Under the pieces are notes generated by a model. That model saw only the letters and a program-made list of their open reading frames with translations. It searched no databases and was not told where the DNA came from. DNA of 64,000 bases from Haplodiscus bocki (lineage: Eukaryota): NCBI GenBank assembly GCA_965655095.1, contig OZ296651.1, positions 35,588,001 through 35,652,000 of the forward strand, in the 5' to 3' direction. Of the stretch, positions 12,500 through 59,439 are shown piece after piece; the first letter of the stretch is position 1, and each line of letters begins with the position of its first letter. Made by a program: the position numbers and the translations under genes.

Positions 12500-15400
12500 C
12501 TTGTCAACCTTCAAAAACGTGCTTATCCACAATAAAGTGCAACTTGCGCCCGAAAAACTCCGACACGCAGCCAAAATCAACCAACCAATTGGATTTTTTT
12601 GACAATTTGTGAAGATTGATTCTGTAGATTCTTCTTCGCCCACGATAATAACACGGGTTTATGGAAAAATCCTAGATTGTACTTTAAACGAAAAAAAAGA
12701 ATCTAAGAGAGAAACGACAGAAGAAGAAATCGTTGACATTTGCACCAGATTGACCAATCACTAAAGGGATTTTTCACAAACCTACAAACATGACAGTTTT
12801 CATATTTTAACTTCTTTACTCGAAGATGTACCTATGTGGTTATAGACATTTTACTACCAGAATTGCTTTTGAGGAACTTCCAAATCAATTCTCAGACGTT
12901 GGAGAGGATTTTCGAAAAACTTTACAATGTCAACCTCACCTGTTTCAGCGGACTTGCTCAACTTATGTTTGGTGAGTAGGAAATGTCAGAAGAGACCAAA
13001 AAAAATTGAACGTTCTTCTCAACAACTCTGAAGAAGTATGTGTGTCAAATAGTCAAAGTGTTCAGATGAATGAAGCTCCAGAAGTTGAAGGTTTGTTGCA
13101 GCTCAAAGTTTTTCTGTAGCATTTAGTTCATTGACGGAGAACTCTTTGAAAAATTTGCCCGTAGAAGTTTTTAAAAAAATGAAGAAAGCGGGAAACTCTC
13201 TCGTTTCGAAAAACACTTTAAGTTTCTAATCTGTGGAGAACAGTATTTCACGACCAGACTAATTTGTAAGTATCATAATTACAGAGACAAATGAGTTTTG
13301 GGAGCTAGTGTGAGGAAATCAAACCCTATATGGTCACATGGAAGCCAACCTAATTTGTACTCTGTGTCCTTTTGTACATTTTTCTTTCGGGACAAATTTA
13401 TTCAAAATCAGTAACCGCTAATTTTCCAAACAACTTCTGCTCCCTTTTGAACGGAGTTTTGAAAGCCTGTACGTTGTGAACCAGAGTTTGTGAACTCAGC
13501 ACTCCTTTTTGGTTATAATTGCTACACCCGCTTACCGCAGGTGACTGAATTTCTTTTCAGATTACCAGTTTTGGAAAAACATGTATAGCACGTACCACAG
13601 AAGAAAATTTAAAACGGGGATTTGATGGCAAACATTTGTTACGACAATGCCATGAAATCCCCGTTCAAAACTTTCTTCTGTAATACATGCTATACATTGT
13701 TTTCCAAAACTGGTAATCTGAAAATATATTTAGTCACCTGCGGTAAGCGTGTGTAACATTTTTAACCAAAAAATAGTGTTGAGCTCACAAACTCTCATTC
13801 ACAAAGTACATGCATTCAAAACTTCCTTCAAAAGGGGGCAGAAGTTGTTTGGGAAATTAGCGGTTACTGATTTTGAATCAATTTGTGCCCAAAGCAAAAC
13901 GTACAAAGGGACACAGAGTACAAATTAGATTGGTTTGCATGTGACCATGTTGGCTTCGATTTCGTCACATTGGCTCCCAGAACTCCTTTTTTTCTGTAAT
14001 TTTAATACTTACAAAAAAGTCTGGTCGTTAAATACTGTTTTCGGCGGGTTGGTTACTGGAAATAAAGCAAAGATGAAAGCCATACTGTTGGAAGTGGAAA
14101 CAACTACAAAGCTCAAAATGACTGTGTAGTGTCGTGAAGCATCTGAACAGAAGGCACATGCGGAAAGAAAATGGGAGTGTCTTTGTGGATGAAAGCCTTG
14201 TCAATTCTGATGAGGAACAGGTTTCTTTAAACTCAGTTCTTCCAGTAAAAAGAACACATTGTTGGTCAAGAACCGCATTTTGAACGGTAATGAGGTGTTG
14301 CCTGCTTTTGGTTTTAACAGCGCAAGGTTGGATTTCACTTCATTAAGTCTTTTTTGCTACCATTTTTTGAAGTGAGCGAGATATTGAAACAAATGTCATC
14401 AAGAAAACCAATCCGTTTGTTTCTTTCATGATTGGGAACATTCGGATACTTCACAAATTTTTCTTCTTGTAGCCAAAAGCCTCGCCTCTTTACTCACAGC
14501 CTGTGGAATTAAAAATGCAACGGAATTTTTTTCCGAGAGTGGTTCGTTTCTCCAGATAAGCAAATTAGGGAGTAGCTCAGTTTCATGATTCTTTCTTCAG
14601 CAAATAACTCAGCAATAACGGACTGGAAGTTGACTTTGCCGAATTTGAAAATCTTTTTAAAAACGGTATATCAACAGAGAAAGCACAATGCAAGCTAAAC
14701 TTTGACAAAGGACTTTCAAATGGTACTAAAAATTTTGCCTTTTTATTCAGTATTTGGGCAAACGATTATACGCAACCTTTTGGAGCTTTTTCAAAAAGCA
14801 TAACAAAAAATTGTTTTTCTGAGTCTGGTGGCAAGGATCAAAATGATTGATTTTCACCACAAAAATGGCAAAGATATAATATTGCTGGGATGTACGTTGC
14901 CAAATAACAAACGTAGCCATTTTTTTGTTTGCATCGATAGACAAGTTCTAAATTGGTTGCCTTCTACTGGTTCCGATAAAGATTTGCTTGAAGAAATACC
15001 GGAATATAAAGTTGGTGACCAGTGCATGGTTTTTTCCACAAAGCTGTAGTGGATGAAACTTTTTTTACGGAAATCAAAGCATGTGTGCCAAATGTGATGT
15101 TGGTTTTGATGCTGCTCAGCTTTTCCGGTAATCAATGCTGACTGATTCCTCTTTTAGCTTGGAAAATGATGCTGCAACAAAGTGTCTCACACCACGCCAA
15201 ATCATCTCACACTGTTCCGAGAACATTGTCCAATCATAGTTTCAACAATCTCGACGAGGCTGTAGAAAAGAAAGCTCTGTTATTACGGCTTGACAAACGT
15301 AAGTTGTTTATTCCAGTTCAGACGGAGCTTGCCGTCATTGTAACACTTTTTGCGGAGCTCGGCAGTTCTATCATGTATATTGTTAATGTTGAGAAGTGCG

Positions 15401-28257: not shown

Positions 28258-29028
28258 GTCCTATATTTTCTAAGGAAAGCTTTGATCAAACAGCTGGTTT
28301 AGAGTTTGTGGGACTACAAACTCCAGGGGTGAGGGCTTCAGTTATAAAAACTTTGGTATCGAAAGATATTGTAGGGTCAGGGTTCCAGCACTCTGGAGCA
28401 ACTGGTAATCTCACCTCGTACCGTATTGGTTTGTCAACGTCTATGTATAGAATATCACCACTTGACGTAGAGTATTCAGTGGGTCTAGTTCGGGAAAAAA
28501 GTATCCAATGAATGTTTTCAGGTTTGTCAAATCAAACATGATAATTACAGTAATCGCCCATTTCGCCAAACTTGATAAAGTGTATTCATCACTTTTCGTA
28601 TTTCGTGGTCTTGTGATCTTGCGAGCGTTTGGTTTTGGTTGAGTTAAAAGGTGAGTGGAACTTTTAGCTCCAAAAAAGAAGGAACATTTTCGGCTTCAAA
28701 AAGCGATATGACACCCTAAAAGCGGAACAATCGGAACTTCATCAATTGATCCACTTTCATCTTCGAGCAAAAACTAACTCAATGACTCCATCTTCCAGCC
28801 TGGTTCAGTTACTGCGGTTATAAGGGTGGAGTTTAAGTCTTTCCAACGCAAACTTTTTAACGGTTGGATAACTTTCACCACCTACGGTCCTGGTGAGTTT
28901 AGGTTACAGTTACAGTGCCCGGTCGGATGCGGTGTGAAAATCCAGACTAAGTCGCCGACTATGTGGAGAAAGGAAACCCGGATTTTCGTCCATATGCTTT
29001 TTTGTTTTTATGAGGTTGTAGTTCGGAT

Positions 29029-29104
29029 GGGGGGTAAATCCAACCTCACCTCCTCGTGGTACCCCCTGGGAGACAGTGTTGCCAACACTGTCTAACGAAC
29101 GAGG
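29029..29104 (+). ncRNA. HDV-like self-cleaving ribozyme at the RTE 5' end
   Basis: P1 GGGGGGU/ACCCCCU with G1-U wobble; P2 CCUC/GAGG; P3 ACC/GGU; L3 UCCUCGU; J1/4 GGG; P4 perfect 10-bp hairpin AGACAGUGUU/AACACUGUCU; J4/2 AACGAA with candidate catalytic C at 29096. Confidence 0.88.
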
Positions 29105-29156
29105 CTCTGGCTGTGGAAGGCAATAGCAAACCACGACAGTATCCTGCTAAGAAACC

Positions 29157-32100
29157 ATGAAGTTCAATATAGTAAATCAAAAAAACGACGTTAACGTAGC
29201 CCAAAGGGGAGACGCGTCCGGTATGGATTGCATCACCAGGCAGGGTGCACCAGATCGTCACCATGCTACTGCCAAGATGGAAGAGCAGAAGAAAAAGAAG
29301 AATGTGTTCAAAATCGCAACATGGAACGTGAGAACACTGTTACAGCATGGAAACTTGGAAAACGTGAAAAAGGAAATGGATCGTTTGAAATTCGATATCC
29401 TCGGAATATCAGAAATGCGTTGGAAAGGAAGTGGACGTATTCAAACCGACGACCACACTGGCATTTTCTCCGGCTCAGAAAACAGAAGCGAGATGGGAGT
29501 TGGATTGATTTTTAACAAAAAGTGGTCAAAGAAGTTGACCGGATTTTGGCCGATTTCTGAACGAGTCCTTCTGGCCAAATTATCGACCGCGCCAATGCCA
29601 ATGAATATTGCCCAAGTGTATGCTCCGACAGCAACATCAACAGATAGTGAGATCGAGGCATTTTACGATGATGTCAAAACAGCCATTAACAAATGCAAAT
29701 CCAGAGATATCACAATGGTCATTGGTGACTGGAATGCGAAAGTAGGCAACAAAGAGTCCTGTAGTGCCGTTGGACCTTTCGGACTGGATGAAAGAAACGA
29801 AAGAGGTGACAGATTTATTGAATGGTGCGAGGATCACAAGATGGTCATCAGTAACACATGGTTCCAAAATAGAAAAAGTAGATTGTATACATGGCGAAGC
29901 GCTGGTGATCGTACAAGAAACCAAATCGATTATATATGTGTGAATGAAAGATGGAGAAATTCCATCCTGGACTGCAAAACGTACCCTGGGGCGGACATCG
30001 GAAGTGATCACAATCCAGTTGTTGCAAAGGTGAGAGTGATTTTGAAGAAGACAAAAGCAGCTGAATTGAGACGCAGGAGGGATTATTAGTCTATTGATCC
30101 TGCTACCAGACATGGAATAAAACACTATGGAGGACAGATATGGACACACGAAGATCGAGAAACGAAAGAAACCACATGGGAGAAATTCAAACGTGTTTGT
30201 CATCTAGTAGATGAAAAATTTGTGCCTGTACGTAAACAACACAAAAACGGGTGGATCACTGAAGAGAACCTAGAATTAATGGAAAAACGAAGGACAGTTA
30301 AATTTGATGACAGAAGATACAAAGAAATAGACCGCATTATTAAACGAAAATGTATGGAGGAAAAAATGAAGTATTATGACGCGCAATGTAGGATTGACTG
30401 AAAAATATATGCCAAGAGATCACCATCAAAGAATACAACAAGTAACTGGTAAGAAATGGAAAAATTGAAAGGATTCTAACGTGTTAAAGGATAAAGAAGG
30501 AAACATCATGATTGAAAAAGATCAAATTATTGAATGATGGAGAGAATATATTGAAGAACTGTATAGTGACGATGAACGACTGCAAGAAACGATAAAGTTC
30601 GAGGGCGAATTGACTGGTAATAAAATTGAAAAAGATGAAATAGTGAAAGCAATGAATACAATGAAGACGGACAAAGCGATTGGAAATGATGAAATACCTG
30701 TCGAAACGATCAAAAATCTGGGCAACACTGGTTTAGATATGCTACAGAAACTATTTAACGAGGTAAATGAAAGTGGAAAATGGGATAATGAGATGATGGA
30801 ATCAACGTTTATACCGTTACCAAAGAAACCAAAGGCAATTGACTGTAGTAACTTCAGGACTATTAGCATAATGAATCACTCGACGAAAATATTATTGCGA
30901 ATCATCATAAATAGAGTGAAAAATGCCATTCATGCAGAAGTCAATGAATGCCAGTACGGCTTCATGCCGGATAAAGGAACTCGAAACGCCGTGTATGTAC
31001 TCAACCGGATCGCAGAAAGAAGTAAACAAGTACAGAAAAAGGTGTTTTGCTGCTTTATTGATTACACAAAGGCGTTCGACCGAGTCCAACACAACATTTT
31101 ATTTGAGATTTTGAGTGATCTAGACGTTAACGACAAAGATATCCGACTACTGCACAACCTTTAATTCGGACAGAAAGCGAATATCCGAGTCTCTAGTGCG
31201 AAGTCGGAAAATGTGGATATAAAGAAGGGAGTGAGACAAGGATGCGTTGCATCGCCAGATCTATTCTCATTATATTCGGAGGTGATAATGAGAGCAAAAG
31301 ACAGAGAAAATGGAGTCAACATCGGAGGCCATAATATAACTAATATCCGATTCGCAGACGATACAGTTTTAACAGCAAATACCGCAGACGATCTACAGAT
31401 TCTACTGGAAAAAACCAACGCGAAATGTAGAAAGTTTGGAATGGAGATAAATACGAAAAAAACGGTCATCATGGTACTAAACGGAGATGGAAAAATGAAA
31501 ACAGAGATCAAACTAAATGGTGAAGTTCTTAAAGAAGTGGAAAAATTCAAATACCTGGGAAGCTGGATAACGACTAATGGAGGACACATGACTGATATTA
31601 AATGTCGAATTGCCGAAACGAAAATAGCTTTTGCGGACATGAAGAATATACTAGCTAATCTTAAAATGCCGTTTGACTTGCGATAACGAATTTTGAATTG
31701 TTATGTCATGCCTATATTTCTGTACGGATGTGAAAATTGGATATTGAACCAACAACAAATTAAAAGACTGGAAGCGACCGAAATGTGGTTTATACGGAGA
31801 ATGCAAAAGATCAGCTGGAAAGAAAAGAAGACAAACGAACAGGTACTCAGAGAAACTATTGGAAAATGAAAATTAATACAAAAAATTGTGCAGCGACAAG
31901 TGTCATTTTTTGGACACGTTATGAGAAAAGGACAACTGGAAAACATCGTAACAACAGCAAAAATAAATGGAAAACGGAGGAGAGGAAAACCATCGATACA
32001 GTATATGGATCAATTTAAAAAATGGACCCAGCAAGAATCCATCGAGAGCCTGATGTCGAAAATTTACGAACGGACTTTATTGGTTGCCCAAGTCTATTGA
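29157..32100 (+). pseudogene. RTE ORF: APE endonuclease (29157-30089) plus reverse transcriptase, with frameshifts and stops
   Basis: APE motifs ATWNVRTL, ILGISE, YAPT, GDWNAKVG, IDY, SDH. RT motifs FRTISI, QYGF, FIDYTKAFD, GVRQGC..SP.LF, FADD, FKYLGS. Lesions at ~30089, ~30390-30540, 31162, 31684 and ~31868. Confidence 0.95.
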
Positions 32101-32558
32101 CAAGGCACGCAAAGAAGAAGAAGAAGTTCGGATACTTTGTGTTGTTTCTTCTCGGGAGAAACTAAGTATTCTAGTGATTACTGAATCTGTGGGAGAGACA
32201 TTTGGGAGAGAAGTATCCGAAATATATCTTTTGTTCGTCAGGTTCTATTTTTATACAGAATTGTGTCCGTTTTCACAAGAACAGTTGTGTTTTTAAATCT
32301 TTTCACTTCGGCCTTGTGCCGGTCGTTGTCGCAGATTTATTGAAGACAGATTTTGGCCCTTCACAAAGGAAAATTTTAGAAGTGAAAAACAAGTGTCGAA
32401 CGTAACTCGCCTGTATACAGTGTTGTGTCAAAAGTAGGTACCTCTTTCAAATTAAACATATGTTAGAGTTCCGTGCCACAGAAGCCAATTCTTTATCATC
32501 CTCCAGTCGCAGATGTCTTGGACGGTGTCATTATTATTTTTCGCAGTATATGTAATAT

Positions 32559-33713
32559 ACAAGAAAAGTTATTCATTCAGTAGGGTCGTTTTTCTTTTTT
32601 TTCAGACCAAAACTGCCAACTCTTTTTATTCAAAAATAAATGATAGCAGTGGGGTTAGGACAACAAGGTTCTCAAGTGGTAAGTTCGGGGTTCGACTCCC
32701 TCTTATGTCAAACTTTTTTACGATTTATCCTTAACAGTTTTTGATACCCGAATTAGTGAAACACTAAAGGGTTCCTTTACGAAGTTTTTCGGCATTGCGA
32801 GACAAAAAATTTTCGACGGAAAATCGCGATACTCGCTCCCCCCTCTTATCCAAAATTTTTTGATACCCGAAATTAGTGAAAAACTAAAGCATTCCCCTAC
32901 GAAGTTTTTCGATACTGTGAGACAACAACTTTTCTATAGAAAATCGTGATATGCCCCCTCTTATCCATAAATATTTTTCGATACCAGAAAACTTCCGGAA
33001 AACAGAATAGTTCTTTTACAAAGCTTTTCGTTTCGATCCTGTGAGACAAAAAATTTCGACAAAACCAAGATGCCCCCCTCCTATGCATGAAAATTTTCAA
33101 TAAAAGAATTTTTCTGAAGCACCAAAGTGTTCTCCATTGAAATATTTTGGTACAGTGAGACAAAAACATCGACGGAAAATCGTGATGTCCCCCCCTCTTA
33201 TCCATAAAATATTTTTCCCTACCAGAAATTTTCTGAAACACAGAATGGTTCCCTGGCGAAGTTTTTTCGGTCCCGTGAGATGAAAAAATTTTCGACAAAA
33301 TTGTGAAGCTTCCCCCCACCTTTGCTTGAAAATTTTCGATACCAGAATTCTTTAGAAACACCGAAAGGTTCTCCTACGAATTTTATCGGCACTGTGTGAC
33401 AAAGTTTTTTCAACGGAGTTTAGTGATATCCCCTTCTTATGTATAAAATTTTTCCTTACCCGAAATTTTCTGATTCACCGAAGTGTTCCCCAACGAAATT
33501 TTTCGGTATTGTGAGACAAAAAATTTTGAACGAAAAGTCGTGATACCCCCCTCTTTCGCATAGAAGATAGAAATCAGTGGTGGAATTGGTGTTTGTAGAA
33601 AAGTTTCGCAAACCAGATTTTACACAGTAGTCTCGTTTTTAACTGGGCAAATATGTTGATCAAAATATTTGTATTCCTGCGAACAATATGCCGGTGCTAG
33701 CCGGCCGTCTTGT
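32559..33713 (+). mobile_element. Non-autonomous element with an internal ~115-bp tandem array; Helentron/DINE-like ends
   Basis: ACAAGA at the 5' end and TCTTGT at the 3' end. Hairpin GCCGG-TGCTAG-CCGGC (33690-33705) just before the end. tRNA B-box-like GGTTCGACTCC at ~32689. Confidence 0.45.
32735..33560 (+). repeat. Tandem array of about 7 diverged ~115-bp units
   Basis: Recurring GATACCCGAAA...ACGAAGTTTTTCG...GTGAGACAAAAAATTTTCGAC...AAAATCGTGAT...CCCCCCTCTTAT. Confidence 0.9.
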
Positions 33714-43965: not shown

Positions 43966-45705
43966 TGTCGCAGCACACCTGCGAAGCCTGCGGGCAGATA
44001 ATCCCAGCAGCAAAGGACACCCCAGGCCCATCAAACAGAATCTAGGATTCTGAAGAAATCGAATATACTTTTAAACTAATGACTTTCCTTCATAAATAAT
44101 GTATTTTTAACCGTATGTATATATATATATAAGTACGTAGACACTACGTACCCCCACTAATGCATAATAACATGAATGGTATACGTGGATGGCACGTAAC
44201 AACTACGTGCCACCTAACGCTATCCCATTCATGAAAAGAGCACGTACCCTGTACGTGGAATTCTGGTGAACTGATCCTTATTGGGACGGAATAGATACGG
44301 AGCAAATGAATATTCATTGTATTTTATATTTATATTAGGTGCTATTTTATATAATTAATCAAACTAATTATTATATAAATCCACCTTTCTAAATTGACTA
44401 GTGCAGTATGTGATCTATTTAAATTGACAGCTTGTCGAGTTTCAATAGCTGGACTATTAAGAACAGAGCTTGACTTTAAAAGTGAATATTTGTTCCGTAT
44501 GTGTTCCGTCGTAACTAATCTGGTGACGTCACTAGAATTCTTAACCAATCAGATGTGCTATTAGGCTGCGCAACTTTGGTCGGCCACGTGTCGTCTACGT
44601 GCCACCGGATTCATTTCTCCTCAGTTGTACTGCGGAAGGTAGTGCTACAAGCGGCACGTAGCCGCCACGTGCCACCACGGCCAAAGTGAGCCGTAGCCTA
44701 GTAGAAACGTGGAACGGGCTAGGATTTACGCCTAGTTTGTCCCAGAAAATGAATTTAACCGATGCAACATGTAACCATGAAGATTTTCAGTATTAGTACA
44801 TATTTATTTCATACATTTCCATTTATTTTCAAGCGCATTTTTAAGTATTCTCCAATTATGGAAATTGCTTTGATCTTTACTTTATGTCGATATTTATGTG
44901 TCGGCGCGGGAATAACCACTTTGATGTCCATTTCCGACGGATCGGACCGTACTCTTTTCTGTCGAAAGATGGAAAGGACGCGGTCCGTGAGGGAAGAAAT
45001 GGATGGAAGGGTGTTTATTTCCCGCCAGAGTCGGCATCTTTTTCTTTGATATATAACATGATTAAAGTACTTTTCCCTATTTGTACCTTGACCTGGCGTG
45101 TAAACAATTATGTTTCCCGCCAAGGAAAGGTATAAATAGGAGAAATGAAAGTACAATTATTATTAATTAAATTGCCGCCTTACCGTACTGTACATTTATT
45201 AACCTTTGACTATTGGATTGAAAAGACTTCTCCCTCATATTAAAAGAGGATAATAATCTGACCAACAATACAAATAGAAAATTCAGTCTTGACCGCTGAA
45301 AAGGTTTTCCCAAGCGAAATGGCAACATTGAGAAATAAAAAAAGTTAGCAGCAGTTTCAAGAGAAACACTTGAAAGTACTAGAAGTGGGAGAGTACCGAA
45401 CATTCTAGACCCAGAATTAACTCAGGATTACATCTCTCAAGTCTTCGAAGAGATTGAAGGTAGAGTTACTAAAAAACTCTCAAAAGAATTCAGTAAAACA
45501 GAATCACGGATCTTGGGAGCCTTGTCGAAACTTGACGAGTTTCTCTTGAACCCACAAGTTCGGACTTGTTCCGTAGTTGCCCCAGGAACCTCTAGGAGCA
45601 ACAATCTAGAAAACCAGGGAACCAATGAGGATCGTCCCTCAGACGATCCTGGGCCTGAAGTGGAGTTTTCTTCCCCCATCCCAGGGGCAGAAACAAATCC
45701 TCACA
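43966..45705 (+). repeat. 5' LTR (1740 bp)
   Basis: TGTCGCAGC...ATCCTCACA; direct repeat of 57702-59439. Confidence 0.97.
44903..45138 (+). promoter_or_regulatory. LTR core promoter: three E2F-like sites and a TATA box
   Basis: GGCGCGGGAA (44903), TTTCCCGCC (45018 and 45113), TATAAATA (45131). Upstream are a CRE-like TGACGTCA (44524) and CCAAT (~44545). The same layout is seen in the diverged solo LTRs. Confidence 0.6.
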
Positions 45706-46943
45706 TGGTGACAGGAGTTACAAGAGAATTTCGTCAACACCCTCACGTGACTATGGAAACCCAAGAAGAAATTCCCTACTGTTCCACTAGTACTTCATCA
45801 GGGAAACAGAAGAAGGCGCGCTCCACAAGTCAACCTCAATTTCGCAGTGAGAATACCCCTGCGACACTGGAGGCAGACCAGATTTTGTTGGCCCTTCAGC
45901 AATTGGCAACGAACAGTAATTCAGCCAATTTCAACAACAACATTAGCCGAAATTCGAAACTGCCGAAATCTCTAACAACGACAATGCCCACGTTTGATGG
46001 AAAATCAGCGAAATTCGAGCTATTTGAAGACTTATTCCAAACGAGTTTGAAAATTCATAACCAGCTGACAGAAGATGACAAGATTAACTACTTCCACTCT
46101 CTCATGCGTGGCGATGCCTTGCAGACTTTCAAAAACATCACCAGCCCCAACAGAGAGAATCTGGTAGAAATTCTGACTGTATTCCGCAGGAAATATGTCA
46201 AACCCCAGTCAATGGCTACCGCGAAACACAAATTTCAACGACTAGTCTTCAATCCAACAAACCAGAAGTTAAATGATTTTCTTGACGAAATCCAGAAACT
46301 AGCGAAAGACGCATTCGGAGTTGCCGCACAAGCCATTATAGAACAATTCATCTATGCCAAAATGCCTCCTCACCTGAAGAAATCAATTAACCAGGCGCAT
46401 TTGGAGAATGGCACATATGAACAGATTGTGTCGCATCTTGAAAGGGAGTTGGAACTAAATGGTTTGGAAGCCCCAGATGAAATGCAACTAAATTCCGTGA
46501 TGCAACAAGACACACAACAAAACTCCGGAAAGCCCAAACCAACGTGCCACCATTGCAAAAAGCCAGGCCACTATCGAAATTAATGCCGTCAACTCAAACG
46601 AGAAAAAGACCAAGTCCAAAACAATACAGATAGTGCGACAAATCATAAAAATAGCAATGGTAGTGCCCAAACAAACTCTAACCCCAATCAAAAAGCAACA
46701 GTTGCAAATAAGGCGAACAATGCAAATAATCAAAGAGACAGGAAAACTAGACCTGTTTTCCCACCCTGTGAGACATGTGGCAGGACAAACCACTCCACGG
46801 AGAGATGCTACCTTGGAGCAAACGCAGCGAACAGACCGCCGCCCAGAAATAGACTGCCGGAAGGACAAAACCAAGCCCAACAGAGAAATACTCAAAATGG
46901 CTCAGACGGGAATGTCCAAGCTGCAGCCCAACCTTTAAACTAA
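45319..46943 (+). pseudogene. gag: Gag (~541 aa reconstructed), starting inside the LTR; two CCHC knuckles; 1-nt deletion at ~45338 and premature TAA at 46581
   Basis: The 3' LTR copy gives the intact start MATLRNKRKLAAVSRE (59052). Capsid-like MPTFDGKS..FELFEDLF; knuckles CHHCKKPGHYRN*C and CETCGRTNHSTERC; stop at 46941-46943. Confidence 0.92.
45706..45718 (+). other. Primer-binding site TGGTGACAGGAGT (tRNA-Leu-like), inside the gag frame
   Basis: TGG directly after the LTR-terminal CA. One mismatch to the tRNA-Leu-type PBS TGGTGTCAGGAGT. Confidence 0.75.
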
Positions 46944-46987
46944 CTGCGCCACGTTTTCACTCCGGAAATGCACGTCACATACCGGAG
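46934..46987 (+). promoter_or_regulatory. -1 programmed ribosomal frameshift signal (T TTA AAC) with a downstream stem
   Basis: The heptamer is in the correct phase directly before the gag stop. The -1 frame is open from 46934 into the protease ORF. CTCCGG/CCGGAG can pair at ~46960 and 46982. Confidence 0.85.
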
Positions 46988-49900
46988 ACTAATAAAACAA
47001 CTAAACTTCCACCAATTCCCGAGGTTGTCTGGCAGCAACCTACGGAGACCAATACAAAACAAGATGATGTTAATAATATTACTAAAGACTCAACTTCAAA
47101 GACTGATGTAGCACGTCAAACTACGCCACCTAAGGGAACCCAACCACAGAAATACGTGGACACCACGGAACAATCTTCAGGAAACAAAACAGGAAATGAA
47201 CCAGTATCGTTCCCCAGTTGCTCCAAAGACTCCTCTACCAATAGCCAAAATACAGAGCAGCACATAACGACTACCCCTAACAAAGAGATGACAACTCCAC
47301 CTCTCAATACAGCAACCCCACTAATTGAGGAAAGGCTAGTGAGAGATGAGCAGACAAATGAGTTGTACCTCCCATTAACATCTACAGTAGTCCTGAAACG
47401 AAAGCAAGAAATGCTTTATGTGCCTCTGGATTTTGAGAACAACCATACGGTAGATGCCCTGGTGGACTCAGGAGCATTTGTCAGTGGAATCGCCCAGGAT
47501 GACTTGGAAATGATAAAACAGAAAGCCCCGAATAACATTCTCAAAATCGACAATCCGCCCAATTTTCAAATACAAGTAGCTAATGGCCAGTTAGAGAAAC
47601 CATTATCAACAGCCACATTAAAATTTGAAACTGGAGATAACTCTTTCGCTGAACATTTCGTCGTAATGAAGAAATTAACGGGACCTATAATTGGGTTGCA
47701 TTTTATGAGAAACAACAGTGTAGTCATTGACACGACACACGGCCTCATACATTTTCCCCACTTGACGATGCAGGTGAAAACAGCCTCAAGTGAAATAACC
47801 ACCAAACCGCAACCAGTCATCATGGACGAAGACCTCACAATACCACCAGCGACAACAAAAACAGTCACAGCCTACAATGACCATCCCTCGAAATGGAACA
47901 CAACAGGCACTGTGACACCGTTGGAGAAGTTTACAGAAACAGCGAGTCTGCTGATTTCCCATTCAATGTCAACAATAATTGACAAGAGAATAGCAGTTAG
48001 AGTGACCAACACAACGGAATCACCATATCTCATCAAAAAACACACACAGATTGCAGAATTCTCCGTGGTTACTCCGGAGCAATCTAAACACATCAAACCA
48101 GTAGATATGGCAATCCTCAGTATGATTCCACAAGGCGATCCTGACCTAACTGCCTACCTAAATGAACTTCTCAGGACCAACAAACCCGAGCAGCAAGCGA
48201 ACACGTTCTGGTTCCCGACACCCGATAATCCTGGAAAGCCTGAGGATCACACCCCAATACAGACAAGAATCCTCAAGGAATTGAACGAACTGAAGGACAA
48301 GGAAAAACTCAATCCACAAGAGAGCGCAGAATCTCGAAACAAATTTCTCAAACGTTTTGATTGGACTGACACGCTTCTTACAGAAACGGAAAAACAAGCA
48401 AATGAAGACATCCTGGTTGAATATCATGATATATTGGCCAGACACAGAATGGATATTGGGATGAACACCGAGTTCCAGGTGAAAATAACTCCTAAAGACG
48501 ATAAAGCTGTATATAGCCAGAGTCTACCCATGCCAATCCACCTGAAAGAAGACCTGATTGTTGAACTGGCCCTAATGCACAAATATGGAATCATTACAGT
48601 ACTGCCCTTTTCCAAGTACGCGAGCCCAATAATTGCACAAAGGAAGCCTAACGGAAAACTACGTCTCCTTGTGGACCTACGAAAAATCAACAGTCTGATT
48701 GCAGATGACTATACTAATAACAATCATCCAGTTAGTACTCTGTCAGACGCAGCACAACACTTGGCAGGAAAGTCACTGTTCTGCAAACTAGATTGGTCCC
48801 AAGCGTATCACTGTTTGCAGATGGCAGAACAACGGTCAGTGGAGATGCTCGCATTCAATTTTGCCAGCAGAACCTTTGCCTACAAAAGACTAGAACAAGG
48901 TCTCAGCAGATCTGTGTCTGCTTTTTCAAGTTTCATGCGTGAGTATTTGGACCCAGTCGTCAAAGCTGACCAATGTGCTCAATACGTAGACGACATTGGA
49001 ATCGCAGCCAACAATGCCACGGACCTTACCCGGAATATCCGAGCAGTCTTCAAGTGCATCCGCCAAGCAGGATTGAAACTGACAATCGAAAAATGTCATT
49101 TTGGAGTCAGAGAAGTTGAGTTCCTAGGACGAACAATTTCACCAGAAGGAATCTCACCACAAGCCCGGAAAATCCAAAACTTCCTTGCTAAACTTCGATT
49201 CCCCAAATCAAAGAAGGCATTGCAGCGCTATCTGGGATTCGTGAACTATTACAGACATTATATTCCCAGAATGGCTGAAAAACTCAATCCGTTCTACAAA
49301 TTGCTTAAAACGGAAGTGCCAATCAATTTTACGTCAGAATTGAAAGAAACATTTGATTCAGTCAATGCAGCTCTCAGCAATGCGTGCGAATTAGCATTGA
49401 AACAACCCATTCCAGGAAAGTAGCTTGTCTTAATGACAGATGCCAGCTTCAGAAGTGCGGGATACGCCCTAATGATTGAAGATAACCCCGATCAAAAAAT
49501 ACAGTCAAAGCGGAAAACCTATGCCCCCGTGGCATTTGGCTCAAAAATTTTCTCCCCTGCACAACTTAAAATGTCTATATACTCCAAGGAATTTCTTGCA
49601 ATCTACATGGCATTTCTTGAATTTGCATACATTTTGTGGGAAGCAACAAAGCCAACGATTGTCTTAACAGATAACAAGTCTGTCACCCGCTTTTTCCAAA
49701 CGAAGGCAATCCCCCCAGCACTCTGGAATGCATGTGATTATGTATTGCAATTCAATTTTAAAATAGCACACATTGCCGGATCAGTCAACACAGCAGCTGA
49801 CTTTCTCTCTAGGCTTGAACTTAAAGTTACGGAGAAGATACGTGTCAAAATTCGGGAGGATATTCAGACAACACCCATTGAAGTGACCACGTTGTCCTCG

Positions 49901-51814
49901 GATGTTGCTGACGAAGAACAAGTTTTCTTCACTTGCGCAGACAACGCTCAAGAATCAGAAGAACAGACTCTTGAACGGAAAAAGCAATCGCGACAAAATG
50001 CGAAGCAATGGGCCGCGAACGAAGAACTACTTGCTTTAAAAACGAGTGTGAAAGAAATCACAAAGATCGACGGGAACACTACGTCGTTTTCCATCAACGG
50101 AATTAAAGCAACTGCAAGAATACGAGTAGAGCAGGACGTTGATCTTGTGTTGAAGAACCTGAAACTGAAAATTTTAGGCCAACCATTTGATGAAGTGTTA
50201 ATAACGACAGATTCGCGATACAAACATTACAAGGCAAATGAAGATCGCATAATCCTTAAAGATGGCCTATTATACAGAAAATATTTTGGAGAAACAGGTA
50301 GCGTCAAATACTACCAAATTCTTATTCCCAAGCAATTAGTTAAGGAAGTCCTACGCAGCTTGCATGGAGAATTTGGCAAGCACCAGGGAATTTTCAGAAC
50401 AATAATTGCTTGCAGGGAAAAATATTACTTTCCGAAAATGGCGCAATTAATCAGGGAGTGGGTCATGTCATGTGAGCAATGCATCAAAGAATCCCGTGTT
50501 GATCCCAGCCTCACCCGCCCTCCCCTGCAAAATCCAAACGAACACATTACTGCGCCCGAAGATGCAATTCAAATTGATTTGGTACCGGAATTACCGCCAT
50601 CTGGTGGTTACGAAAACATTGTGACAGCTATGGATGTGTTTTCCCGCTTTTTATTCGCGTACCCGACAGCAAATCAAGACGCCAAAACAATCGCTAAAGT
50701 CTTAATTAACATAATGACTAAGCACGCCTACTTACCAACGACGCTCATCTCAGATAAAGGTACAGCCTTTACGTCACATGTAATTAAAGAAGTGGCCGGC
50801 GTCCTTGGCGTTACTCTAAAGGACGCCACTACAAAGCACGCTCAAACAATTGGGCTACTTGAGCGATCTCATGCGTCAATCAAGAAAGCATTGAAGATTG
50901 AGACAGGCGAGCGGCGATCACTTTGGCATAAATACGTCAACATTGCAGTTCTCAATTATAACACTTCTTATCACACAAGCATTGGCTGTGAGCCAAGCCG
51001 AGTCTTTCACGGCAGAATTCCCTACAACATTCTTGATTTAAAATTGGGAATTCGCCCACAGCAACAGCCTATTCCCACTTCGCAAATTGCCCAAGATATA
51101 CTCGAGCAAACCGAAATGATCCACCAAGATGTACGCAAGAACACTATGCAAGCGTATACTAAATACAAGGCCTACTATGACAAAAAGGCCAACGCTTCAA
51201 AACTCAAAGAAGCAGATTATGTATATATCTTGCAGCCGAAAGCGGATCATCAAGGAAGCAAAATTCCATTCACAGAATTTCGATGGGTTGGCCCGTATAT
51301 TATCGAAAAGGCACTACCAAATAATAACTATCTGGTACGCAAAATTGGCACAAACAAGACGCAATTGCTTCATCGAATGAGAATGCGTCAATTTACACCC
51401 GGCCAACCACCAGCAGACATCACAGTCAAGCCGCAAGATTATAAATCCGATACCGAAGTGAATATTAATCACGACGATTTATATGCAAGGGCGTGGGAGT
51501 ATGATTTCGAGCAGCCAATTTTCGACGCCGAGAACGACAACGCGGCGCCACCCAATCCACGAGAAATTCCAGTACAGTCTGATTTTTTAACGGAGGAAAT
51601 GAGGAACACGCAAGGAGCCACACACGAGTGTTCCCCAGAAATTTTTCCCCCAACGGACGAAACTAGCGACGTAGCAGATACGTATACACATGTGGAACCA
51701 GATGTGGGGACAAGCTCGGAACAACAAGGAAATAGCCCGAGCAACCCCCGCAGCTCCAAATACAACCTGCGTCATAACCCGAAGCCGAATTGCAATGACG
51801 ACTACAGATATTAA
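46934..51814 (+). pseudogene. pol: Pol (protease, dUTPase-like spacer, RT, RNase H, integrase); single in-frame TAG at 49421
   Basis: PR LVDSGA; RT LRLLVDLRKIN and YVDD; RNase H TDAS and ADFLSR; integrase HHCC (H..GKH..CEQC), IDLV/SDKG/LERSH and GPY. ORFs 47156-49423 and 49433-51814 are in the same frame. Confidence 0.95.
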
Positions 51815-52093
51815 CTTGTCTGTGGAACAAGTGTGTTCCACGTATTGCGCACGTAGACATTCCTCCAAATGTGTCCCACGTAGTGCGCACGTGGGCGCTC
51901 CCTAAAAATCCAAACAAATGCGCTACGTGGCACGTAGGTGGCAGCCCGAACTGACTGACACACCTCGACTATGGCTATTCCCTGGCGACTAACTCATCTG
52001 CTACACAGTAAAGACTATTCCAAAACACGGCCACTAAGACTAAATTCATCAATATTCCATTATATATTTGGCCGGTTATTCCGCTATTATTCA

Positions 52094-52179
52094 TTTATTT
52101 CCTTTTTTCTTTTCTGTTTTGGCGGACTAATAGACTACTATTATATATATACATGCATTCAACAATAAATATCAATAAA
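52094..52179. terminator. Convergent candidate polyadenylation signals between pol and the antisense gene
   Basis: AATAAA on + at 52164 and 52174. AATAAA on - at 52094-52099, ~170 nt after the antisense stop. Confidence 0.5.
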
Positions 52180-52269
52180 GAAGGCAGTTCAAGGTGGCAC
52201 AACGAGCAAATCAATCAAATTGGCGAACGACAAAACAATTAAAAATGTTCAGATGCTAAAAAATTCTGT

Positions 52270-55200
52270 TTATGGAAAGCCCATTTGAAACACAGGAGCA
52301 GCGCGGCGATTGCGCCCACTCCGGCGAGACTTCCCATGAGAAGATGGAGCAGCTAAGGCAGAAGCAAAACTCGGGTCCTCTACCAAAGACCGCCTTGGGG
52401 GACTAACAAGGGGACTTGACACCTCGAACCTCCGTGGCAACTTCACCGGAATACGGGTGATTTTCCTCTTCCTCTTACTGGAAGGCGAACTAATTTTACT
52501 TGGCCCAGGAGAACCAAGAACAGGCGGACAAACAGGCACGTATTCAACACGACCCTCTTCCACAACGTCCAATATTCTCACCCCTGGCCTTGATGTTGAC
52601 TCAACTCGGGGGGCGCTTCCATGATGCCAACGCTCACTCGTGTCCTTGGCAGAACGACGACGCAGAACTACCCGATCCCAACAGGAGCACATGTCAGCAA
52701 TCACCTGGCTTGAAGAAGCGGACGCAACAACATTCCACGGAGCATACACAGGACTTGACGTGATGCTATCAGCGATGGCAACAGATTCAGACAGCATAGT
52801 CAAGCCTGTCTCCAAAAAGAAATTTCTCTGGGTGAAGTGCGGGCTCCGAACAACGTCCTCCACGCAAAGCAAGACACCACGCACTTCCTCTTTCCCAATG
52901 GCGACACGATCCAAATTGATTGTGAACTCATCACTTTTTGCTGATGACCCAAGGATCACAAGAGCCGTCAACTGGAACACCTGAAATACAAAACTGCACG
53001 AAATGCTGAGACAACTTTCAGGGGCCAAAAGATACAACTTGATTGCCTACGATACATACTTTGTACAGGTGCCGACGAGCGCGGAAACCAGCCTGTCCGG
53101 AACAGAACGACAGGACGTCACCTACGTCAGGGCGGCTCCTCGTGGACGACCGCTCCAGCTGCCGCTGTTCTCGAACAAAAGACTGGTACTCAGCCCGGCA
53201 CGCCTCTACCTCGCTCCCCCTGATCCAGCCTCTCTCCAGCAGCCCATCCACAAGCTTATTGAAAAGCTGCAGCGGAGCAACGTCGTCCCCACCAACCACA
53301 ATTGCAGGGCAAAAACAGCTTAACCCCTGCCCGATGACTGAGCGTGAGGCAACGGTGGAAAGCACGCAACTCAAAAAGTCTTCCAGAAATCGACGTGCAT
53401 CACGGCGGAATTCTTTTTGTAGAAATTGGCTAGCAACTTTGCCCAACGCAGCCATTACACGAGTGCCCTCCAGAAAGTGCTCGTCATCAATCGAAGCAAA
53501 ACGGGAATGATTGGCAACAACGTACTTTTCCCATTGTTCAACAAGAGGCAAAGACGATGCCTTCTTTACTTTCTGCAGCAAGCAGTACACAAATCGCGCC
53601 AACTCTCCAAAGGCGTGGTAGCCCTGGTCTGCTGCAGTTGGAGGATGAACGAAATTATTGGCAACTGAAACAGAAACATGTGTTAGAGACAGGGCGACGA
53701 TTCAAAGCGCCCACCAAAGTATCCTTACCATGTTCAAACTTCCACCCAAAACAAACAAGGAATCCCCATGGAGCAACACTCGTGTGTTCCCGGAAGGGGG
53801 AGCCAGCACGATTTCCGCAACCAAGGCACCCCCTCCCAACTGGAACAGAGACAAAACAGTAGGAGTACTTACAGATTTCAAGAAGGAGATGCAACAGACG
53901 GAACTTCGTGCGAGCCATCTGGTCCATGTAAAAGTACCCGTCAATTCCCTTCCTCTGAAACACAACGCAATACAATGAAGACGGGTACGGAAAGGGCACC
54001 AACACAAAGAAAGAAGGAAGACCTTACCACAAGACTATCCCCATCGTCTTTGCGTCCCGTCTCCTTCAAGTAGGAGACAATCAGGGGCCAAACGCCGACA
54101 ATGTTGGCAACCACCTCGACCAAATGGGGCATACTCAAATCGTTGGTCAGTATGGCTCTCCTCAAAGCGGGCCGGGAGGACATCCAATCCCGCGTCTCAG
54201 CGCCCTTTAGCCGATTGACGATAAACTCAGTCATGGCCAGCCCGTCCAAACTCCCAAACACACTCGAGGAGGTTCGTTGCAAACAACGTCTAAAGAGCCG
54301 AAGATCAAAGACCGGGTAGTCAATCAGTTTTTGCCGATACCCACTGCCCAGGTATTCGCGAAAGGCCTCCAAAAGCACAGTCGAGCCACCGATGATCGAC
54401 ACGATCTCCACCTCAGACCCAAGTGCATCAACCACCCGCCCCAATGCAGTGATCTCCTGATGAGGATCGCTGCTGTAGCGATCCAGGGTGGCCACACAGA
54501 CTCTCCTGAAGGTGTCCACATCCCAAGTGCGTAGAAACACCCGCACCTTGTCACCATCCTCCTCGAACTCCACACTGCACATTCCGTGTGACTTTGCCCA
54601 GTTCATGCAACGCGAAAGGATCCTCGGGTACATCCCATTCAGGATGATGGACTGAAACGACAAAGAAAGGAATGCACATGGGCCACGTAGAACATTACGA
54701 GCAACTTATAACTACTAACCAAGACCTCGTCGCGTGACCACGTAACGTCAACGTTGACGCGTACGGCAGACAAAGTGAACTGCGCCCAGAGACGGTAGAC
54801 CAGCTCATAGCTTCCACCCAGACGCAGCACTTCAATGAGGGAGGAAACCTTGGCCATCACCCCCAAGTTCGGGTCCACAGCACCAGTCTCGTCAACGATG
54901 ACGTCTTCACAGAAAGGGTACTCCCTGTCTCTCACGACCAAAGGAGCCCCCATGATCCTCTCTCGCTGGCGCTCTACCTCGGAAGGACTCATGACATTTC
55001 CCTCATAGTCAAGCACTTCCCAGCCTGGCGTCTCCAAACGCAACCGTTGATCGCGCGGAAAGTGCTTGCTGCCCTGAAAGTGCCGCAAAATCTCGTGTTG
55101 GCCATGAGTCAATACAGATACGTCCTTGAGACAAATTCTGCTATAAAAATGACTGGGTTTTGTCGCTGCATCTGTAGGCCCAGTCACAAAGAATCGCCCA

Positions 55201-56625
55201 ACTTCACCAGTTCCCCAAGCTCGCTTCATCTTATAAGCCTTCCTCGAACGCAATCTCCGCCGTGGCTCGCCAGCATCACTTTCGTCACCACTCGTGTCAG
55301 TGGTATCGCCCAATCGAGGAACAACACGCGCTGGCCCCTGCTCCAACTGCTCCAACCGACTCAGAACATTATCTAATCCTGTGAACAGCAAGTCTGCATG
55401 AAAACGAGGACAAAAGAAATAATGAGCAAAATGCGATGCACTGAACTAAAGAAGGAAAGAAAACATTCTGTGCTGCTGAAGGGAATAATACTAACTCGAA
55501 ACAATTGGGTCCAGAATCTGCGCCCGCTCCTCAGCACAAACAGAACGGCACAAACTAACAAGCTGGTGACCTGTCGCATTGATGGGCGTGATAGCAGGAT
55601 CAACGGAAAAATTGTCTAAAACAAAACAATGGAAATGAGGAACCATTGTGGGACGCCACTTAGCACTTCCTCAACCTTCAATTGATACTAACCATCGTGG
55701 AAAGCCTGCTCCAGCAATGCCCGACTGTGGTCACGACCTGCGAAGTCAACTGAAGTTGACGTACACCGCGCCAAAGGTACCAGGCGACGCGAAATTCTGG
55801 CACTTCTTGACCTCCTCTGTCCCCGCACTTCAGCTTCTGTCGAAATGTCCCCCTCCCCAAAATCAGCTCCTGGGACTTCTACTGGACCTGAAAACAGAAC
55901 AGAGATGAGATTGACTAAATCTCCCCCACTACAAACACGTAGAATAATGCATACTTGACTCGAAATCCATGGGAGCATTTACTGTAGGGCCATGACCGTC
56001 CTCACCTGACGAGCGCCCAACCTCCACCTCTGCCCCGGAACAAACCCGAGAACAAGAACCACTAAACTCTGGCTGACCAGCAAGTTCACCAGATGAATCA
56101 AACACTGAAACAAAGAGCCCCATGATGCCTTCTTCATGAAGAGGCGCGCGCTGTTTACTAGCTTATGGGAAATATGAGTGGCCACCATATGAATCCAGCA
56201 AAACAAAGCTAATGAGATATGAAGAAAGAAGACTCACGTGTGGGCAAACGAGATGTGTCAACAACACCCTCTGCCAAAGTCTCTACAGCAAAATTCGCCC
56301 GTGCCAATGCATCAGCAAACGTCCAGCCTTCGGACTCTGCACCAACAGCTGCACTGACCCCACTCATGATGTCAACAAAACTGTCGTTGTCATCTGCCTC
56401 TCCTTCACGATAACCTACAGTGCTCTCCTCACCGGAAACAGCATTGCCAGACTCTCCAACATGATCTTCGTCCTCCTCCACGATCGCAGACTCTCCAGGC
56501 ACAACGCAAACACTTGGCATCAATCTCACAGTCGATGTCGTCTCGTCAATCGCCAACTCCCCCTCCGCTGGACTTGACCCGCCCTCAGTGAAGAGAGTGG
56601 CCCATCTATTCTCCGAACTTGACAT
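52270..56625 (-). CDS. Spliced antisense accessory gene, 9 exons, 1177 aa: acidic N-terminus, BED-like Zn finger, degenerate hAT-transposase-like body, basic Ser/Arg-rich tail
   Basis: Exons: 56625-56238, 56104-55955, 55887-55693, 55615-55496, 55378-54720, 54651-54028, 53954-53873, 53664-53060, 52980-52270. They total 3534 nt with no internal stop. All 8 introns (67-208 nt) are GT..AG with pyrimidine tracts and matching phases. Confidence 0.88.
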
Positions 56626-57052
56626 TCAGAAATTGGTGAAAGACGGGGCTAATCAGCTAATGAGCTAACAATTTACATGGTGGATTTACATATTTATTCA
56701 TAAATTTCTTAATTATTCATTTAAAGTCTGATTAATTTATCTGCCAGCAATGACGTCAGCATGCATTTTCAAGGATGCATTGAGGAATCATACTCAAGAA
56801 GTCCTTGAATTTAGAAACTCCATTTTGAGATTTGTTTACATCTCATCAACTTGAATGGCACTCTTAACTCTCTACTTTCATTGACGCGGAGCAGCGGCGC
56901 GGGAACATCAAATGAAATCCCGCTTCAGAAAAGTGGACGACTATCATCAGCAATACTCATCACTCTACCAATTTTTATTCATCGCAACCAGTTGCTTCAA
57001 TTATACTTATTAAACCTATTTTTCTTCAACTCATAATCCGATCAGCATCACA
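56626..57052. promoter_or_regulatory. Putative internal bidirectional promoter
   Basis: 427-bp AT-rich gap between divergent ATGs. Contains TGACGTCA (56751), GGCGCGGGAA (56896) and TAAATCCACC on - (56679-56688); all three also occur in the LTR. Confidence 0.55.
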
Positions 57053-57781
57053 ATGTCACTCAATTCATCAGTAAACTCCACGGACTCTGACGTATTTTAT
57101 GTTGAGCAACTATCAGACGAGCCCAGTCCGCGCAGAAATAACACGCCGGACATACTCAACTCGACAGCGCGAACAGACCATCAAGCGATGAGGATGCCAT
57201 CATTCTCCACGATCGCATCCCCTCAGCCTCATTTCGTGACGATCGATGATGATTCCAACCAGATTACAATGGCTTATGGGTTTGGGCAGCAGCACCCGAT
57301 CGTTCCCCCCAGCCTGAATGATTTAAACCTGCCACCCAATCCCTTTAGTATATTAGCGACGATGGCCATAGCTAACAATACGGAACATGACAACGAACAC
57401 TACAGCCCGGAGTCACCGGACCCGTCACTACCATCATCCATATCGTCGCCCCCAATGAGCGTCAGTGCATTCCACAGTTTCGAAACGACGCACAGTACAA
57501 CGGACGACAACAACTTTTATTATTCGTCCGACAACGATCCAAGAAGGATATACTGGGAGACGTCTCTTAACGAAACCTTCGAGTCAAATGAGCCCAGAAG
57601 AGTGTATCCTATCGAAAGCCCTCCATCCACACCGCCGCCGCCGCCCCGAAAACTGAAGAGAAAGTTGAGCCTGGGAATGTCCTTTCCAAAAGAGGGGGGA
57701 GTGTCGCAGCACACCTGCGAAGCCTGCGGGCAGATAATCCCAGCAGCAAAGGACACCCCAGGCCCAACAAACAGAATCTAG
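57053..57781 (+). CDS. Accessory 242-aa Ser/Pro/Asp-rich protein overlapping the PPT and the first 80 bp of the 3' LTR
   Basis: Intact ATG-to-TAG ORF of low complexity. Contains PPPPRKLKRK (NLS-like) and a terminal HTCEACG. No signal peptide or TM segment. Confidence 0.75.
   Translation: MSLNSSVNSTDSDVFYVEQLSDEPSPRRNNTPDILNSTARTDHQAMRMPSFSTIASPQPHFVTIDDDSNQITMAYGFGQQHPIVPPSLNDLNLPPNPFSILATMAIANNTEHDNEHYSPESPDPSLPSSISSPPMSVSAFHSFETTHSTTDDNNFYYSSDNDPRRIYWETSLNETFESNEPRRVYPIESPPSTPPPPPRKLKRKLSLGMSFPKEGGVSQHTCEACGQIIPAAKDTPGPTNRI
57688..57701 (+). other. Polypurine tract AAAAGAGGGGGGAG
   Basis: All-purine run directly abutting the TG of the 3' LTR. Confidence 0.92.
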
Positions 57782-59439
57782 GATTCTGAAGAAATCGAAT
57801 ATACTTTTAAACTAATGACTTTCCTTCATAAATAATGTATTTTTAACCGTATGTATATATATAAGTACGTAGACACTACGTACCCCCACTAGCGCATAAT
57901 AACATGAATGGTATACGTGGATGGCACGTAGCAACTACGTGCCACCTAACGCTATCCCATTCATGAAAAGAGCACGTACCCTGTACGTGGAATTCTGGTG
58001 AATTGATCCTTATTGGGACGGAATAGATACGGAGCAAATGAATATTCATTGTATTTTATATTTATATTAGGTGCTATTTTATATAATTAATCAAACTAAT
58101 TATTATATAAATCCACCTTTCTAAATTGACTAGTGCAGTATGTGATCTATTTAAATTGACAGCTTGTCGAGTTTCAATAGCTTGACTATTAAGAACAGAG
58201 CTTGACTTTAAAAGTGAATATTTGTTCCGTATGTGTTCCGTCGTAACTAATCTGGTGACGTCACTAGAATTCTTAACCAATCAGATGTGCTATTAGGCTG
58301 CGCAACTTTGGTCGGCCACGTGTCGTCTACGTGCCACCGGATTCATTTCTCCTCAGTTGTACTGCGGAAGGTAGTGCTACAAGCGGCGCGTAGCCGCCAC
58401 GTGCCACCACGGCCAAATTGAGCCGTAGCCTTGTAGAAACGTGGAACGGGCTAGGATTTACGCTTAGTTTGTCCCAGAAAAAGAATTTAACCGATGCAAC
58501 ATGTAACCATGAAGATTTTCAGTTTTAGTACATATTTATTTCATACATTTCCATTTATTTTCAAGCGCATTTTTAAGTATTCTCCAATTATGGAAATTGC
58601 TTTGATCTTTACTTTATGTCGATATTTATGTGTCGGCGCGGGAATAACCACTTTGATGTCCATTTCCGACGGATCGGACCGTACTCTTTTCTGTCGAAAG
58701 ATGGAAAGGACGCGGTCCGTGAGGGAAGAAATGGATGGAAGGGTGTTTATTTCCCGCCAGAGTCGGCATCTTTTTCTTTGATATATAATATGATTAAAGT
58801 ACTTTTCCCTATTGGTACCTTGACCTGGCGTGCAAACAATTATGTTTCCCGCCAAGGAAAGGTATAAATAGGAGAAATGAAAGTACAATTATTATTATTT
58901 AAATTGCCGCCTTACCGTACTGTACATTTATTAACCTTTGACTATTGGATTGAAAAGACTTCTCCCTCATATTAAAAGAGGATAATAATCTGACCAACAA
59001 TACAAATAGAAAATTCAGTCTTGACCGCTGAAAAGGTTTTCCCCAAGCGAAATGGCAACATTGAGAAATAAAAGAAAGTTAGCAGCAGTTTCAAGAGAAA
59101 GACCTGAAAGTACTAGAAGTGGGAGAGCACCGAACATTCTAGACCCAGAATTAACTCAGGATTACATCTCTCAAGTCTCCGAAGAGATTGAAGGTAGAGT
59201 TACTAAAAAACTCTCAAAAGAATTCAGTAAAACAGAATCACGGATCTTGGGAGCCTTGTCGAAACTTGACGAGTTTCTCTTGAACCCAAAAGTTCGGACT
59301 TGTTCCGTAGTTGCCCCAGGAACCTCTAGGAGCAACAATCTAGAAAACCAGGGAACCAATGGGGATCGTCCCTCAGACGATCCTGGGCCTGAAGTGGAGT
59401 TTTCTTCCCCCATCCCAGGGGCAGAAACAAATCCTCACA
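57702..59439 (+). repeat. 3' LTR (1738 bp), includes an intact gag N-terminal ORF (59052-59456)
   Basis: Direct repeat of the 5' LTR, followed by TSD ACCAT. Confidence 0.97.

Follow-up and report, generated by a model that had tools for sequence, protein, structure and literature searches.

An HDV-like ribozyme fold at the 5' end of a young RTE-type retrotransposon family

A decayed RTE-type element in the 64-kb window

The window, by which we mean the whole 64-kb stretch of DNA that was analysed, holds a Ty3/Gypsy-like LTR element, short repeats and the remains of transposons; no host gene is obvious in it. The LTR element (43966-59370) has repeats of about 1.4 kb that are 98% identical, and its gag/pol frames lie at 45339-51814. 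An inverted repeat with 410-nt arms, 85% complementary and 17 nt apart, is located at 13221-14057, and a tandem repeat of about 120 bp (32738-33545) adjoins a very high-copy element that starts near 32530.

The element under study (29029-32124) is about 3.1 kb long and still shows traces of both an APE endonuclease and a reverse transcriptase (RT) (Table 1). Decay of its ORF, noticed in the sequence-only reading, was confirmed by comparison with an intact natural sibling, from which the window copy differs by 80 substitutions, six in-frame stops (30087, 30466, 30535, 31162, 31684 and 31867) and one 8-nt deletion after 30390. An open frame of 984-985 codons was observed in 12 of the 38 siblings fetched. 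The product of one intact sibling is a 983-aa APE-RT protein with PF03372/PF14529 and PF00078 domains, in which neither an RNase H match nor a C-terminal Cys-His motif was found.

In the excerpt of PMC1291365 cited here, RTE elements are defined as about 3.1-3.3 kb long, with one ORF of some 1000 aa that encodes APE and then RT, and with a 3' UTR that is very short and closes with repeats of trimer to pentamer units. The present element agrees in all these respects: one ORF of about 1000 aa, the APE endonuclease before RT, a length of about 3.1 kb, and some 20 nt of 3' UTR followed by the trimer (AAG)n. For the target-site duplication (TSD), an excerpt of PMC6007223 gives mostly 10-12 bp, with the base repeated in the tail as the first base, and a location some 10 nt downstream from a T-rich patch. 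TSDs of 10-12 bp were found in 22 of the 23 family copies in which the duplication directly abuts the first nucleotide (G1), in agreement with this signature; in the flanks of 42 insertions, T was present at −12 in 25 copies, A at −11 in 19, and T at −23 and −22 in 24 and 25 copies, respectively. Protein relatives were returned at 40-46% identity, some from rotifers and shrimp, with no named RTE reference among them. The window element is thus classed as an RTE-type LINE by its architecture, 3' UTR and TSD features rather than by an RT tree.

At the left junction, a T-rich stretch is followed by AGTTCGGAT and then by the six G residues that open the fold. The sequence-only reading had placed the left TSD flush with G1 (29029) and its repeat after the AAG tail, and both were found there; the duplication is also readable as 11 bp with one mismatch (29018-28/32123-33). 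A third AGTTCGGAT match in the window, at 5081 on the minus strand, was taken as chance. The 9-mer alone is weak evidence, three or more matches being present in 3 of 100 shuffles, but its placement at both ends is not weak, because a flush TSD was never obtained when the ends were mismatched (0 of 315 pairs). The left flank (28780-29028) had a single match in the genome, and no paralogous empty target site was found. Both junctions were present in contigs of one sequencing run (28400-29056 and 32099-32557), which may be the assembly's own sample.

Table 1. Coordinates of the element and of its predicted 5'-terminal fold in the window
Feature	Position	Strand	Remarks
5' target-site duplication AGTTCGGAT	29020..29028	+	9 bp, exact
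HDV-like ribozyme fold (predicted)	29029..29104	+	Rfam, helix descriptor, helix parsing
P1	29029-35/29061-67		G1·U wobble, five G-C, one U-A
J1/2	29036-43		8 nt
P2	29044-47/29101-04		4 bp
P3	29048-50/29058-60
L3	29051-57		UCCUCGU
P1.1	29068-69		GG
P4	29071-80/29084-93
J4/2			holds C29096 at the C75 position, the predicted catalytic C
30-nt 5' UTR block after P2	29105..29134	+	26/30 identical in the sister family
Decayed single ORF, APE endonuclease and RT	29157..32089	+	3' end coordinate approximate
(AAG)n tail	32110..32124	+	after 3' UTR of about 20 nt
3' target-site duplication AGTTCGGAT	32125..32133	+	directly 3' of the AAG tail

The 5'-terminal fold in the window family and in a sister family

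Rfam models, a helix descriptor and helix parsing together identified all five helices (P1, P1.1, P2, P3 and P4) in the nested double-pseudoknot order, with the predicted cleavage site between 29028 and 29029. The purine that opens P1 (in the pair G29029·U29067) and C29096 in J4/2 are both retained in a sister family described below, and C29096 is invariant in all 39 family copies aligned. When both strands of the window were scanned with the helix descriptor, a single match was obtained, exactly at 29029-29104. No match was obtained in 100 dinucleotide shuffles of the window, a lenient control since the descriptor was devised after viewing the window instance. Helix parsing, the descriptor match and the shuffles thus uphold the complete nested double pseudoknot at 29029, and the coordinate C29096, as first read from the sequence.

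The covariance-model search proposed along with that reading gave a mixed outcome: the fold was matched both by HDV_ribozyme (37.7 bits, E 0.0073; gathering score 50) and by HDV-F-prausnitzii (34 bits, E 0.0014; gathering score 44), and both scores fell below gathering. As the models matched represent viral and bacterial families, the sub-gathering scores concern those families and not the fold class. A genome-wide search with RF02682 yielded three weak matches among 62 scored candidates, the window family not being among them. Pseudoknot-free folding by ViennaRNA, which cannot represent the pseudoknot of an HDV-like fold, preferred an alternative hairpin (MFE z −1.4). By its sequence pattern, the segment 29029-29104 is assigned to the HDV-like ribozyme folds.

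A sister RTE-type family (L103, L104, L106, L108 and L135-L154; for example G000:C1:149345199-149345454, minus strand), with 49% aa and 60% nt identity to the window family, has an HDV-like fold of its own, 70 nt in length. Its 5' end passes the helix descriptor written for the window fold, and it resembles the window family in its AAG tail and flush TSDs. Between the two folds, two compensatory pairs were found in P1 and two in P2, P3 was identical, P4 was unrelated, and the C-N-A-A-C of J4/2 was kept; this covariation is that of two families only. Of 31 sister matches, 20 copies were examined; G1 is the first base in 15 of these, nt 2 in none, and a flush TSD was present in all four full-length copies with both ends. 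This family opens with three G residues, compared with six in the window family, and so most of the junction ambiguity caused by the G run is removed.

One reading attributes the fold to chance resemblance in a 5' end rich in G and C, and the TSD match to coincidence. Rfam scores below gathering, an MFE z of only −1.4 and a 9-mer that is not rare by itself are compatible with such an origin, but the shuffles without a match, the null TSD pairs and the four compensatory pairs of the sister family contradict it, making it hardly credible.

The 30-nt block that follows P2 is more alike in the two families than are the ribozymes themselves or the families overall (60%). In the literature, no related RTE paper was found for a 12-nt piece of this block. 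It presumably resembles the Bov-A unit of BovB-derived SINEs.

A tandem array with a period of about 1955 bp was also observed (G000:C7:5219466-5235348), in which eight units carry nt 14-180 of the sister family and are followed by a longer copy.

Starts of the family copies and the origin of the G1 end

A first look at the genome gave at least 101 candidate copies of the 5' end and at least 181 of the 3' end, both lower bounds. Among the best 40 matches to the 5' end, 30 junctions were viewed, and all 30 begin at G1 with unrelated flanks. This set favours G1 starts and few changes because it was picked by 5' similarity, and the bias was countered with copies from a downstream probe, for which 30 of 40 junctions were viewed. 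Fifty distinct copies were compared: in 42 the first nucleotide is nt 1, in one it is nt 2, and the other seven begin downstream. Their 300-nt upstream flanks had nothing in common near the junction; the one exception was a 42-nt inverted match lying about 190 nt or more from it.

The least biased set consists of 48 family matches of a protein search, selected without regard to the 5' end; six further matches of the same search belong to a second family and were left out. In this set, 28 copies start at G1 and one additional copy has a 5' inversion ending at G1 (29/48 in total), three start at nt 2-3, seven at nt 4-15 and nine further in, four of these nine being judged from protein-search coordinates alone. 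The seven copies starting at nt 4-15 (L112-L114, L116, L117, L124 and L129) are near full length and lack the 5' strand of P1; starts at nt 6-12, just past this strand, possibly reflect stalling of RT at P1 or trimming of the end during joining. In some copies the exact junction is uncertain by 1-2 nt because of the six-G run. The start at G1 is family-wide. The refuting observation named in the sequence-only reading, full-length copies extending further 5', was not made: no copy examined extends 5' of G1 with common sequence.

Two individual junctions were unusual. L130 (G000:C4:4495950-4500400) carries a 5' inversion resembling twin priming, with an 11-bp TSD, and its inverted segment, running from nt 142 to 1, stops at G1. 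L113 (G000:C4:40706600-40711000), which starts at nt 11, has an inverted copy of the AAG tail at its 5' junction.

TSDs were called in 39 copies, namely the window copy and 38 of the other 39 matches, one having been dropped for its short contig. The duplication was flush with G1 in 20 of them, separated from it by extra G only in three and by other extra bases in eight (11/39 with extra bases); the remaining eight were without an exact TSD of at least 8 bp. A second set of 24 further copies, from which G1 copies already fetched were left out, contained nine at G1, three of them flush. Under one calling rule, flush TSDs were thus found in 23 copies, as against none of the 315 mismatched end pairs. 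The modal length was 11 bp (19 of the 23), the 9 bp of the window copy being the shortest. The extra bases were often pieces of the ribozyme 5' end, either direct (9-12 nt) or inverted (8-18 nt), and others were longer G runs; among the 39 copies that start at G1 and have a called TSD, a single extra G was found in one. Variable 5' junctions similar to these are described, in an excerpt of PMC3774820, for R2 elements whose first base is the cut site.

These observations altogether suggest that the HDV-like ribozyme very probably sets the element's 5' end, the integrated template being a self-cleaved RNA that starts at G1. Such an RNA is the most likely template because the G1 start is family-wide, the TSDs are flush and the sister family behaves likewise. 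That the integrated RNA was the self-cleaved product, already proposed from the sequence, is supported in addition by the compensatory pairs at the same junction in the sister family and by the lack of any examined copy extending 5' of G1 with common sequence.

The following course of events is envisaged. A source copy would be transcribed and its RNA would fold, by analogy with the R2, RTE and L1Tc ribozymes; C75 (29096) and Mg2+ would then remove all upstream RNA, the first base of P1 being the point at which HDV-like ribozymes cut (excerpt of PMC4908430). The cleaved RNA would keep an uncapped 5'-OH end, shielded by the fold. At the target, the APE domain would nick a T/A step situated downstream from a T-rich patch; target-primed reverse transcription, started from the AAG tail, would carry the cDNA to G1, and a second nick, staggered by about 11 bp, would make the TSD. 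The extra junction bases could come from run-off of RT, re-priming and fold-back at the ribozyme end.

Alternatively, an internal Pol II promoter could set the 5' end at G1/G2, copying of the cap supplying G1, and the fold would be vestigial or RNA-stabilising. Junction sequence alone cannot separate a start site from a cut site, and excerpts from two other systems lend this reading some substance: promoter and ribozyme lie in the same 77 nt of L1Tc (PMC3383444), and in R2 templates the fold aids insertion through stability and not necessarily through activity (PMC11331408). It would also agree with the lack of common variants in the whole 5' UTR, beyond the fold. Nevertheless, G1·U, L3, P1.1 and C75 are kept across families only 60% alike while the helices covary. 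Copying of the cap leaves an extra G in about 33% of SVA insertions (excerpt of PMC3287187), and the rarity of a single extra G in the present family weakens the promoter reading; in the sister family, too, the mixture of G1 and nt 2 starts expected from partial cap copying is missing. We therefore regard a promoter origin of the G1 end as clearly improbable.

Age of the window copy, read-through transcripts and known systems

Among ORF variants in the 39 copies, those common to at least three copies were mostly synonymous (47 synonymous versus 25 non-synonymous), and singletons were mostly non-synonymous (220 versus 695); common variants therefore record active lineages and singletons neutral decay. 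At the 44 core sites of the ribozyme, no common variant was detected, whereas the synonymous rate would predict 3.5 (P about 0.03). The constraint is not specific to the ribozyme, because the 52 UTR sites after the fold are also without common variants, and the 39 copies had been selected by their 5' similarity. Three common variants within the fold were all in P4/L4 with pairing kept, and at one P4/L4 pair, 15 older copies, the window copy among them, have U-A, 14 have U·G and 10 have C-G.

The window copy carries 31 private substitutions in 3084 nt (about 1%), of which a single one lies in the fold, turning the basal G·U pair of P4 into A-U (29071). An unchanged 44-nt core is expected, since this private divergence predicts less than half a change there. 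The window fold is thus most likely intact because the copy is young and not because it is selected at this locus, and its intactness is no sign of co-option. The suggestion of the sequence-only reading that the fold has outlasted the ORF and may still cut read-through transcripts is therefore a bare possibility. Three raw RNA runs gave no reads over 28400-32700, a result that counts neither for nor against transcription.

The opposite view, that the ORF-dead window copy has been kept for its ribozyme, which would affect the host by cutting its read-through transcripts, appears very improbable. The unchanged core and the preserved pairing of the sole private change in the fold would suit it, and P1 is predicted on the 41-nt nascent prefix when 0, 50 or 100 nt of the native flank are included (probability 0.87-1.0); but for the same copy this probability is 0.2 with 20 nt of flank and 0.03-0.6 on longer prefixes. 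Furthermore, the small number of private substitutions predicts an intact core most of the time, the helix descriptor is also passed by 31 of the 38 siblings, and by eye no host-gene-like ORF of at least 150 aa was seen in the window, introns not being excluded.

In a still wider reading, the ribozyme lets the RTE family use host read-through transcription and contributes to an unusually high proportion of full-length copies, about a hundred intact self-cleaving sites in the genome, the window copy included, cut host transcripts, and 29105-29134 is a second functional RNA element common to RTE families. The figures behind the full-length share are the at least about 100 candidates for the 5' end against at least about 180 for the 3' end. 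We consider this combination unlikely, and the picture of how such elements work stays unchanged unless cutting of host transcripts is shown.

LINEs of the RTE clade with HDV-like ribozymes at their 5' ends have been described by Ruminski et al. 2011, as cited in excerpts of PMC6765202, PMC3774820 and PMC5786205. The first of these excerpts lists RTE among the elements that such ribozymes free from co-transcripts, the second (Eickbush 2013) states that in R4, L1 and RTE the ribozyme cut falls on the 5' junction, and the third (Kojima 2018) counts RTE among six clades with HDV-like ribozymes. A ribozyme-made 5' end is thus already known for RTE, R2 and L1Tc, and no claim is made that the two families analysed here are undescribed. 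With the RTE ribozymes of Ruminski et al. 2011, as far as the citing excerpts go, the present fold shares the common clade architecture, the location at the extreme 5' end and the coincidence of cut site and 5' junction; it differs in family and host genome, in its compact 76-nt size, in its 8-nt J1/2 and in its 4-bp P2.

R2 of the Drosophila type is likewise cut at its own first base (excerpt of PMC3774820), but it is rDNA-specific with a fold of about 184 nt, whereas the window element is dispersed. The window family also differs from R2 in its APE domain, TSDs of about 11 bp and junctions of which about half are clean. The R2 endonuclease is of the restriction-like type. Another parallel is L1Tc/NARTc of Trypanosoma cruzi, for which an excerpt of PMC3383444 describes an HDV-like fold of about 77 nt cutting 5' of nucleotide +1, as predicted here, in a dispersed APE-type LINE with a TSD of about 12 bp, the window family being likewise dispersed and of the APE type, with TSDs of about 11 bp. 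L1Tc differs in belonging to the Ingi/L1Tc clade, with RNase H; promoter activity is shown for it in the same excerpt.

The two young RTE-type families, with covarying folds and dozens of TSD-bounded G1 junctions in one genome, provide a clean natural example. They should be useful for improving models of RTE ribozymes, as the Rfam scores fall below threshold, and they keep a record of how the reverse transcriptase of a dispersed LINE finishes at a ribozyme-made end.

Decayed HDV-like folds were also observed at L132 and L133 (G000:C2:71497782 and C2:96258063), where they lie upstream of another endonuclease-RT element, the third and a distant one, with 26-32% aa identity to the window-family protein.
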